Source of the DNA: Escherichia phage Turkey5
Sequence record: PQ471516.1
Strand: one strand, 5' to 3'
Length of the DNA stretch: 64,000 nt
Under the pieces are notes generated by a model that was given only the letters and a program-made list of their open reading frames with translations, was not told where the DNA came from and did not search any database. Of the stretch, positions 582 to 1,068 are shown piece by piece (position 1 is the first letter of the stretch; the number at the start of each line of letters is the position of its first letter). A program made the translations under genes and the position numbers.

Positions 582-746
582 ATGACGCATGAAGAATGGA
601 TGAATGATATTAATTTTAGATATTCGGGTATCGGTAGTTGGCGAAAATATCATTGGGAAATTATATCAGACCCAGCAGAATACGATAAACTTATAAACCA
701 TGAAGTATATCCGTGGTTCTTTATTGAAATAATGGTACGAATATGA
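582..746 (+). CDS. small hypothetical protein (54 aa, MTHEEWM family, copy 1)
   Basis: ATG after AAGGTG; below the 60 aa ORF-track cutoff; paralogous to next two ORFs; stop overlaps next start (ATGA). Confidence 0.45.
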   Translation: MTHEEWMNDINFRYSGIGSWRKYHWEIISDPAEYDKLINHEVYPWFFIEIMVRI

Positions 747-907
747 CGCATGAAGAATGGATGAATGATATTAATTTTAGATATTCGGGTTTCGGTAAAT
801 GGCTAAAGTATCATTGGGAATTTATTACTGATCCTCAAATGTACGATAAACTTATAAATGATCAAGCATATGAAATTTACTTATTTGAAATACTGGTCAG
901 AACATGA
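743..907 (+). CDS. small hypothetical protein (54 aa, MTHEEWM family, copy 2)
   Basis: Same N-terminus MTHEEWMNDINFRYSG as copy 1; ATGA start/stop overlap. Confidence 0.45.
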   Translation: MTHEEWMNDINFRYSGFGKWLKYHWEFITDPQMYDKLINDQAYEIYLFEILVRT

Positions 908-1068
908 CGCATGAAGAATGGATGAGAAAACAAAAGCTAACATGGAATCCTTATTGTTACCAGTTAGACCCAAGAATGTGGGATGTGATACGTATTAAAT
1001 GTATGTACAAATCATTTCTTGGTGATATAATGGATGTTGAAGTACTGATGAATTTAGTACATCGATAA
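904..1068 (+). CDS. small hypothetical protein (54 aa, MTHEEWM family, copy 3)
   Basis: N-terminus MTHEEWM then diverges; ATGA overlap with copy 2. Confidence 0.4.
   Translation: MTHEEWMRKQKLTWNPYCYQLDPRMWDVIRIKCMYKSFLGDIMDVEVLMNLVHR

Follow-up and report, generated by a model that had tools for sequence, protein, structure and literature searches.

Three tandem, overlapping 54-codon paralogs in the transfer RNA region of an Asteriusvirus jumbo coliphage: predicted co-expression and in-register recombination of gene cassettes

We analysed a stretch of 64,000 nucleotides (nt) of Escherichia phage Turkey5 (PQ471516.1; the whole stretch is referred to as the window) and focused on three back-to-back open reading frames (ORFs) of 54 codons, located on the + strand inside the transfer RNA (tRNA) region of the phage and each starting with the residues MTHEEWM. 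To judge from the comparison with related genomes, the three ORFs appear to be true genes that encode proteins in a jumbo coliphage of the genus Asteriusvirus, and we consider it highly probable that they are real, co-expressed paralogous genes that evolve by in-register recombination. The genes themselves are already present in GenBank as hypothetical proteins and in PHROGs; what is new here is the definition of the family, the evidence for selection, the dynamics of cassettes and gene conversion, and the expansions to 18-23 copies beside tRNA clusters.

The first-pass annotation, made from the sequence alone, had described three tandem, overlapping ORFs with a common start, and the sequence and the ORF lists bear this out: a 22-mer encoding MTHEEWM (ATGACGCATGAAGAATGGATGA) is found in the window without mismatches at positions 582, 743 and 904 only (expected number of matches in shuffled sequence 0, even when three mismatches are allowed), and the start-to-start spacing of the ORFs is exactly 161 nt. 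The same phase was recovered by Tandem Repeats Finder (period 161 nt, 2.1 copies, 82% matches, score 464) and by a repeat search, which returned a 23-nt repeat occurring three times at 161-nt spacing. Copies 1 and 2 are alike throughout, as had been claimed, with 80% nucleotide identity in the repeat search and 70% identity between the proteins (BLASTP E 7e-29). The claim that each stop overlaps the next start in an ATGA holds for the two internal junctions, where the stop codon TGA shares nucleotides with the ATG that follows (TGA 744-746 and ATG 743-745 between copies 1 and 2, TGA 905-907 and ATG 904-906 between copies 2 and 3); it does not hold for copy 3, which ends on a TAA (1066-1068) that overlaps nothing and that lies 30 nt before the next ORF, starting at 1099. 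The array is indeed situated inside the tRNA region, flanked by tRNAs called by ARAGORN at 219-474 and 1496-4443, and, at 54 amino acids (aa) each, its ORFs are missing from the ORF track because of the 60-aa cutoff that was applied there. Such 60-aa cutoffs conceal real genes under selection in the genomes of jumbo coliphages.

The coding status of the trio was evaluated on a set of arrays from the window and 11 relatives (12 genomes), the 31 copies of which were sorted into three orthologous types, A, B and C, represented in the window by copies 1, 2 and 3, respectively. None of the 31 copies is disrupted, and each has exactly 54 codons. The pooled Nei-Gojobori ratio of non-synonymous to synonymous divergence (dN/dS) in the called frame was 0.17 for type A, 0.24 for type B and 0.28 for type C, against 0.88-2.13 in the two other frames of the same ortholog sets, and the variable sites of the orthologs peak at third codon positions. 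The codons for MTHEEW vary synonymously in the relatives and among the paralogs (ACG/ACA, CAT/CAC, GAA/GAG) and therefore the common start is kept as protein and not as DNA. In every annotated relative the members of the trio are annotated as coding sequences for hypothetical proteins, of 165 nt each and with 4-nt overlaps. The earlier suggestion of paralogous coding ORFs was thus sustained by intact and conserved frames, by purifying selection that is specific for the frame and by a shared PHROG family; a lack of conservation of the frames in relatives, which would have spoken against it, was clearly not observed, as every relative examined keeps the frames intact. The homology search with the 54-aa sequences that had been proposed as a check yielded matches to phrog_10970 and identical GenBank proteins. 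On the basis of frame-specific selection and frame integrity, the three ORFs classify as functional protein-coding genes. Peptides such as YHWEIISDPAEYDK would be candidates for identification of the products of the trio by small-protein mass spectrometry.

The region matched, in a megablast search, the Asteriusvirus genomes of the 121Q/PBECO4/G17/phAPEC6 group, jumbo myoviruses of ~350 kb that infect E. coli and Salmonella. The nearest relative is JNE01 (98.5% over window 1-1489) and the best megablast match over window 559-2852 is TH47. The protein encoded by copy 1 is identical to 121Q gp125 (YP_009101716) and to JNE01 WOL22920.1, and those encoded by copies 2 and 3 are identical to JNE01 WOL22921.1 and WOL22922.1, respectively. 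All three match the profile of phrog_10970 (PHROGs v4, 56 positions), which we take to be a PHROG without assigned function, over their full length: copy 1 with E 2.4e-27 (residues 1-54 on profile positions 1-56), copy 2 with E 7.7e-25 and copy 3 with E 4.3e-19 (residues 1-54 on 1-55). The members of this PHROG (121Q gp125-127, PBECO4 AGC35066-67, G17_00183-185 and JNE01 WOL22920-22) are the same as or orthologous to the trio, and their loci have the position and the ATGA-overlapped layout found in the window. There is no difference in kind between these relatives and the trio; the window carries, like JNE01, a divergent allele of type C. We also noticed that the 90%-identity cluster of copy 2 (P0065) lists a protein of 597 aa that by eye resembles anaerobic ribonucleotide reductase; this entry, unrelated to the 54-aa protein, is most likely an artefact of clustering or gene calling.

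The family can be described by a length of ~50-64 aa, an N-terminal M-[TS]-x-x-E-W and homology over the full length, and by genes placed in tandem and in one direction beside a tRNA cluster, with spacers of 1-3 nt or -4 overlaps at the junctions. The trio shows all of these features. The family consensus reads MTHEEWMxxxKxxYDxFGxGxxxGHYDILxDKxxFxxxVLDxxxxxWFIYELAxR, in which W6 is invariant in alignments of 19-20 sequences and conserved for 86% in a set of 76 sequences. The three types are recognised by their signatures: ...SWRKYHWEIISDPAEYDK...PWFFIEIMVR for type A, ...KWLKYHWEFISEPH...YEMYLIELLVR for type B and MTHEEWMKRQKLKWNPYY...EVLMHIVHR for type C. The first-pass annotation had stated that copy 3 keeps only the N-terminus. 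This is correct for plain identity (~21-31% with the copy 1 protein, mostly within the first 7 residues) and falls short of the homology, which runs the full length: the type-C profile without its first 7 residues aligned with the profile of the rest of the family over 44 columns (hhalign probability 94%, E 1e-7). Comparison with A/B alone, N-terminus likewise removed, gave E 0.067, and significance was reached only against the whole remaining family. Copy 3 shares its length and its predicted four-helix layout with copy 1 and is a full-length, diverged paralog rather than a mere N-terminal remnant.

An exhaustive HMMER profile search of 1.84 billion cluster representatives gave 28 matches at E < 1e-3, nearly all of 43-64 aa, and the family is therefore tiny and restricted to a clade. 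Searches by tblastn with distant metagenomic members yielded matches in Asteriusvirus and in Salmonella SD phages only (34-40% identity), and scans of IMG/VR with DNA patterns retrieved only 121Q itself and single chance matches. The syntenic 22 kb of RaK2 (Alcyoneusvirus) contained no member in searches with the seed and the iterated hidden Markov model (HMM), though a tRNA cluster is present, and the family is thus not universal in RaK2-like phages. Within the 64 kb of the window the trio are the only family members. Further MTHEEW... ORFs are found 1-2 kb upstream of the array in relatives, and JNE01 has nine members, namely the trio and six more located 1.5-2.8 kb upstream, which is beyond the left edge of the window; the trio would accordingly form the 3' end of a larger set.

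Larger arrays were found on contigs of uncultured, distantly related jumbo phages. A contig of 78 kb (L082) has a co-directional run of at least 23 members (7167-11644), followed by tRNA-Leu, Gly, Ser, Arg and Met; a second (L013) carries at least 18 (6001-9417), followed by tRNA-Leu and Gly, an HNH gene and tRNA-Ser, Met and Asn; and a third (L083) carries at least seven members in 1.9 kb, six of these seven being contiguous (49-1123). The number of family members per genome ranges from 3-9 up to at least 23, and in all arrays (window, relatives and these three contigs) most junctions consist of a -4 overlap or a spacer of 1-3 nt. The linkage between the family and tRNAs is old, given that a protein encoded in the flank of the L082 array has no more than 30-37% identity to proteins of Asteriusvirus and Alcyoneusvirus.

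The content of the arrays varies between the cultured phages. Complete A-B-C arrays are present in the window, JNE01, WPEC3, 121Q, TH47, G17 and BF17; type B is missing from PBECO4, CRJP21 and A4, which have A-C arrays; and ELP-22 and JP4 have B-C arrays. These changes are always in phase. The C copies of PBECO4 (A-C), JP4 (B-C) and G17 (A-B-C) are 100% identical whereas the content of their arrays is different, which implies that the changes are recent. The consensus sequences of A and B are identical over the first 55 nt, and the synonymous divergence between A and B within a genome is 0-0.17 in codons 1-18 versus 0.31-0.50 in codons 19-54. This homogenised 5' end appears to be a gene-conversion tract and a substrate for unequal crossing-over. 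The identity of the C copies in arrays of different content and the homogenised 5' 55 nt of A and B together argue for recombination in register: a crossover in the A/B 5' tract would delete A and leave B-C, and a crossover in the ~22-26 nt that are common to B and C would leave A-C. Sites at which A and B are mosaic were observed in TH47, PBECO4, A4 and the window.

The type-C allele of the window and JNE01 has a nucleotide identity of only 73-75% to the C copies of the ten other phages, which are 87-100% identical among themselves; the C allele of the window is 25% diverged while copy 1 is identical to its 121Q counterpart. The 5' 22 nt of C seem to have been converted to the A/B spelling in the window/JNE01 lineage, with ACG...GAA replacing ACA...GAG. 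Between the paralogs A and B the dN/dS was 0.37-0.76, which is above the values for the orthologs and below 1. Overall, recombination or gene conversion at the conserved 5' ends would add, delete and swap cassettes of 161 nt, and would thereby keep the frame and the coupling between the genes.

In several respects the MTHEEW array resembles the genomic accordions of large DNA viruses: copy number varies among near-identical genomes, expansion reaches at least 18-23 copies, and paralogs diverge faster than orthologs. Classical accordions are, however, transient amplifications of one gene under acute selection, whereas the MTHEEW array consists of old, highly diverged members that are each under purifying selection. 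Tandem duplication as a route to the growth of jumbo-phage genomes was put forward by Hua et al., whom the phAPEC6 paper (PMC7247149) cites on this point; the passage of the latter paper that deals with the subject considers arrays of closely related genes in the genus to support expansion by tandem duplication, and ties its gene array to tail whiskers, not to the MTHEEW family.

Two sigma-70-like promoter motifs delimit the predicted transcription unit (Table 1). They represent near-identical sites of a 29-nt motif, TTGACTAAATARTYCAGTACTGATAWAAT, that has only two occurrences in the window (0 expected by chance), both immediately 5' of a tRNA-Ser, and that is conserved in 9 related loci. The transcript of the three ORFs likely starts at the upstream motif; the downstream one overlaps the final codons of the 121-aa ORF located after the array, and marks the downstream limit of the trio's unit. 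Given these flanking motifs and the fact that no terminator was predicted between them (nor elsewhere on the + strand in window 1-3000), the predicted unit contains: the promoter, tRNA-Ser, the tRNA-like element at 479-557, copies 1-3 and the 121-aa ORF, which is probably the last cistron. The host-type promoter would thus drive the trio together with tRNA-Ser and the tRNA-like element as one + strand unit. Copy 1 would be translated from its own Shine-Dalgarno sequence, at the position of which the relatives have AAAGGT. Upstream of copies 2 and 3 we found only the weak motifs TGGTAC and TGGTCA, respectively, in addition to the overlap with the preceding stop, and on these grounds translation of both copies by termination-reinitiation at the ATGA overlaps is inferred; such coupling suggests a roughly equimolar synthesis of the copies.

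The 121-aa ORF evolves fast (58-92% amino acid identity among close relatives). It is weakly paralogous (27-29%) to an ORF of ~124 aa that precedes the next tRNA-Ser in relatives (L085:12759-13130), and likewise to an ORF just upstream of the 18-copy array (L013:5301-5678). ORFs of this type would constitute a second small family that is tied to the tRNA region.

A model of copy 1 obtained with AlphaFold2 on an alignment of 19 sequences contains four helices (residues 3-14, 22-29, 31-39 and 43-52; predicted local distance difference test, pLDDT, 78; predicted template modelling score, pTM, 0.54) and that of copy 3 has the same helix layout (pLDDT 63). The predicted fold of the family is a four-helix bundle without known relative: Foldseek returned nothing below E 7 from BFVD, and fold comparison with PDB and BFVD yielded no significant neighbour. 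Sequence profile searches of Pfam, NCBIfam, PADLOC and PDB gave no match for the trio, and no membership of an enzyme family was found. Neither curated models nor solved structures connected the proteins to known defence or anti-defence families, and neither domain searches nor fold matches gave an indication of a helix-turn-helix (HTH) or other small DNA-binding regulator. In the set of 76 family sequences, conservation is concentrated in the N-terminal M-T-H-E-E-W and in the hydrophobic core, and nearly all conserved columns are hydrophobic; the polar columns vary almost freely, with an entropy of more than 3 bits. The proteins are soluble (grand average of hydropathy about -0.5) and rich in aromatic residues, and copies 1 and 2 are acidic, with a net charge of about -4. 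We also considered the N-terminal Met-Thr-His as a metal-binding motif, like the amino-terminal copper- and nickel-binding (ATCUN) motif, an idea that is weakened by the conservation of His3, which is no higher than 65% in the extended family.

With respect to function, we tentatively favour a class of non-enzymatic accessory binders for host takeover or counter-defence, by analogy to known phage systems, and hold this to be possible though short of probable. The products would be soluble early accessory proteins that bind other macromolecules; the paralogs would keep a common mini-scaffold, and their variable surfaces would face different targets or target variants. The complete explanation, in which genes, expression, array evolution and function are taken together, has in our estimation about even chances. 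Like the trio, the small ORFs in T4-like tRNA clusters are interleaved with tRNAs on the same strand, have apparent host-type promoters and homing endonuclease genes nearby, and are lineage-specific, variable among close relatives and seemingly dispensable. The trio differs from them in that its ORFs belong to a single family of paralogs, share a fixed N-terminal motif and are arranged as tandem cassettes in phase, and it has no detectable sequence or fold relation to the T4-type host-takeover proteins. Anti-defence loci (anti-CRISPR, anti-restriction) are likewise similar to the trio: they comprise small genes (50-60 aa) that are ORFan-like and encode acidic products (as do copies 1 and 2), they are tightly packed and co-directional, their content varies among close phages and they lack enzymatic motifs. 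Such loci, however, usually mix unrelated genes whereas the trio is one paralogous family, and the trio has no match to PADLOC models, PDB or BFVD, and no adjacent Aca-type HTH regulator was seen. The trio alone is routine; the comparative pattern of motif, cassette gain and loss, 5' conversion, expansion and tRNA position is typical of genes in phage-host conflict. More than 80% of the genes of jumbo coliphages are without function, and the family provides a cheap and well-defined candidate for small-protein screens in these phages, whether for toxicity, by pull-down or on panels of defence systems.

Several points weigh against this explanation. The promoter call is a consensus match only. 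The literature that was searched contained no paper on the MTHEEW family, no record of expression, proteomics or interactions for any of its members, and neither a transcriptome nor a proteome of the genus Asteriusvirus. The paralog dN/dS stays below 1 and positive selection is thus not demonstrated. The AlphaFold2 models, built on alignments that were shallow (19 sequences), have moderate confidence in the case of copy 1 and low confidence in that of copy 3. The weakest members of the 23- and 18-copy arrays were picked up with an iterated HMM from a small pool, so that a few of them may be false. The assignment to host-directed binders rests on the analogy with T4-type small early genes and with anti-defence loci, and, finally, reading the products as generic accessory proteins leaves their tight and ancient linkage to tRNAs unaccounted for.

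That linkage is the core of an alternative that we judge unlikely, in which the proteins would neutralise anticodon nucleases or other tRNA-targeting toxins, or would chaperone or process the phage tRNAs, so that proteins and tRNAs together form one translation-protection module. Phage tRNAs can substitute for tRNAs that have been cleaved by host anticodon nucleases. The ORFs lie between tRNAs of the same strand in the window and in all relatives, and the promoter lies 7 nt from a tRNA; every detected member of a genome sits in the tRNA region; and the linkage extends far beyond Asteriusvirus, as the 23- and 18-copy arrays, whose neighbouring proteins have only ~30-37% identity to those of cultured relatives, end right before tRNA-Leu/Gly/Ser. 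The linkage may nevertheless be incidental, because the tRNA regions of large phages are sites where mobile and accessory genes collect, in this case an HNH gene and a group I intron. RaK2 has a tRNA cluster and no member in its syntenic 22 kb. Moreover, the proteins have no similarity in sequence or fold to RNA-binding or nuclease-inhibitor proteins, and the acidity of copies 1 and 2 speaks against direct binding of RNA, though not against binding of a nuclease.

Decidedly unlikely, in our view, is a role as phage-internal regulators or assembly factors, such as modulators of RNA polymerase or sigma factors, or chaperones of replication or morphogenesis. Small helical proteins like T4 AsiA and the partners of MotA redirect RNA polymerase, and the family consists of small, all-helical proteins that are under purifying selection and that have a conserved place in a unit with a host-type promoter. 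Core regulators, however, are normally single-copy and present throughout a clade, whereas the array varies between A-C, B-C and A-B-C among near-identical phages, the number of members per genome runs from 3-9 to at least 23 and the syntenic 22 kb of RaK2 is devoid of them; in addition, no HTH or other DNA-binding signature was found.

A bolder version of the counter-defence reading, to which we give only a small chance, is that the array constitutes a cassette library of effectors, quickly reshuffled and coupled in function to the co-transcribed tRNAs, in which each four-helix protein of ~6.8 kDa would block a different immune nuclease or toxin that targets tRNA or translation. If true, the conserved 5' end would double as a protein motif and as an in-frame recombination joint, and tRNAs and inhibitors would make up one translation-protection operon, which in certain uncultured jumbo phages would comprise 23 inhibitors or more. 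The last alternative, a DNA- or RNA-level repeat or a selfish or neutral duplication, in which the 22-nt start would serve as a target for recombination, processing or an endonuclease, could draw on the perfect 22-nt identity at an exact phase of 161 nt, on 5' ends homogenised by gene conversion and on the proximity of homing-type HNH genes and an intron, and is nevertheless very improbable in view of a dN/dS of 0.17-0.28 in frame against ~1 or more off-frame, of copies that are all intact in 12 genomes with a conserved pattern of the hydrophobic core, and of an MTHEEW start that is kept through synonymous changes, also in paralogs of otherwise 17-30% identity. The reading of the array as a non-coding repeat or as chance ORFs is largely refuted by the frame-specific dN/dS, the intact copies and the conservation of MTHEEW at the protein level.

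Table 1. Features of the array and its surroundings in the window (positions as in the window)
Feature	Position	Strand	Basis	Remarks
tRNA-Gly	219-294		ARAGORN	
Sigma-70-like promoter candidate	350-378	+	TTGACT-17-TAAAAT, TG extended -10, 10/12 matches	7 nt upstream of tRNA-Ser(tga)
tRNA-Ser(tga)	385-474	+	ARAGORN; Rfam tRNA 56.9 bits	directly upstream of the array, co-oriented
tRNA-like element	479-557	+	Rfam tRNA 33.3 bits (gathering score 29)	no ARAGORN call
Shine-Dalgarno-like AAGGTG	571-576	+		5 nt upstream of the copy 1 ATG; sole strong ribosome-binding site of the trio
Copy 1, type A	582-746	+	MTHEEWMNDINFRYSGIGSWRKYHWEIISDPAEYDKLINHEVYPWFFIEIMVRI	54 aa + stop; isoelectric point 5.1
Copy 2, type B	743-907	+	MTHEEWMNDINFRYSGFGKWLKYHWEFITDPQMYDKLINDQAYEIYLFEILVRT	54 aa + stop; isoelectric point 4.8
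Copy 3, type C	904-1068	+	MTHEEWMRKQKLTWNPYCYQLDPRMWDVIRIKCMYKSFLGDIMDVEVLMNLVHR	54 aa + stop; isoelectric point 7.8
121-aa ORF	1099-1464	+	phrog_34619 (no assigned function)	after the array in all loci/relatives
Second promoter-like motif	1461-1489	+	TTGACT-17-TATAAT, TG	7 nt upstream of tRNA-Ser(gct)
tRNA-Ser(gct)	1496-1585	+	ARAGORN	
Free-standing HNH endonuclease gene	2063-2767	+		234 aa, HTH-like C-terminal part
tRNA-Asn	2775-2849	+	ARAGORN	
Two tRNA-Thr(tgt)	4290-4363, 4370-4443	+	ARAGORN	80-nt tandem repeat, 79% matches

The slot that is orthologous to the tRNA-like element just upstream of the array is annotated as tRNA-Leu(taa) in 121Q and as tRNA-Arg(tct) in G17 and JP4, and the element could be a decaying, weak or unusual tRNA. 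Further downstream, a tRNA-Met(CAT) gene (1739-2043, +) that was not called by ARAGORN is split by a group I intron of 230 nt (1777-2006; Rfam RF00028, 95 bits, E 2e-24). Its two exons (1739-1776 and 2007-2043) can be aligned with the tRNA-Met of phage A4, which is not interrupted, and the insertion falls precisely between the CAT and the AA of the anticodon loop, with the 5' exon ending on T and the intron on G. Rfam puts the 5' part of the intron at 1685-1730, upstream of tRNA-Met, which looks wrong. The same split gene is present in TH47 (99.4%) and, at ~88.6%, in the Klebsiella phages Muenster, KP13-7, RCIP0023 and phiKp_21; nothing is annotated beneath the match in the phages that share it. 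The HNH gene starts 20 nt after this tRNA-Met and directly precedes tRNA-Asn, a placement that resembles that of RaK2 ORF219. This gene could either serve the intron as its homing partner or be a mobile gene in its own right. The adjacent pair of tRNA-Thr(tgt) genes represents another local duplication in the tRNA region. Beyond these genes, positions 4459-9206 (+) contain about ten co-directional ORFs of 135-156 aa, several of which overlap by a few nt and a few pairs of which are weakly similar (BLASTP E 1e-3 to 3e-8); this run may be another old and diverged tandem family.

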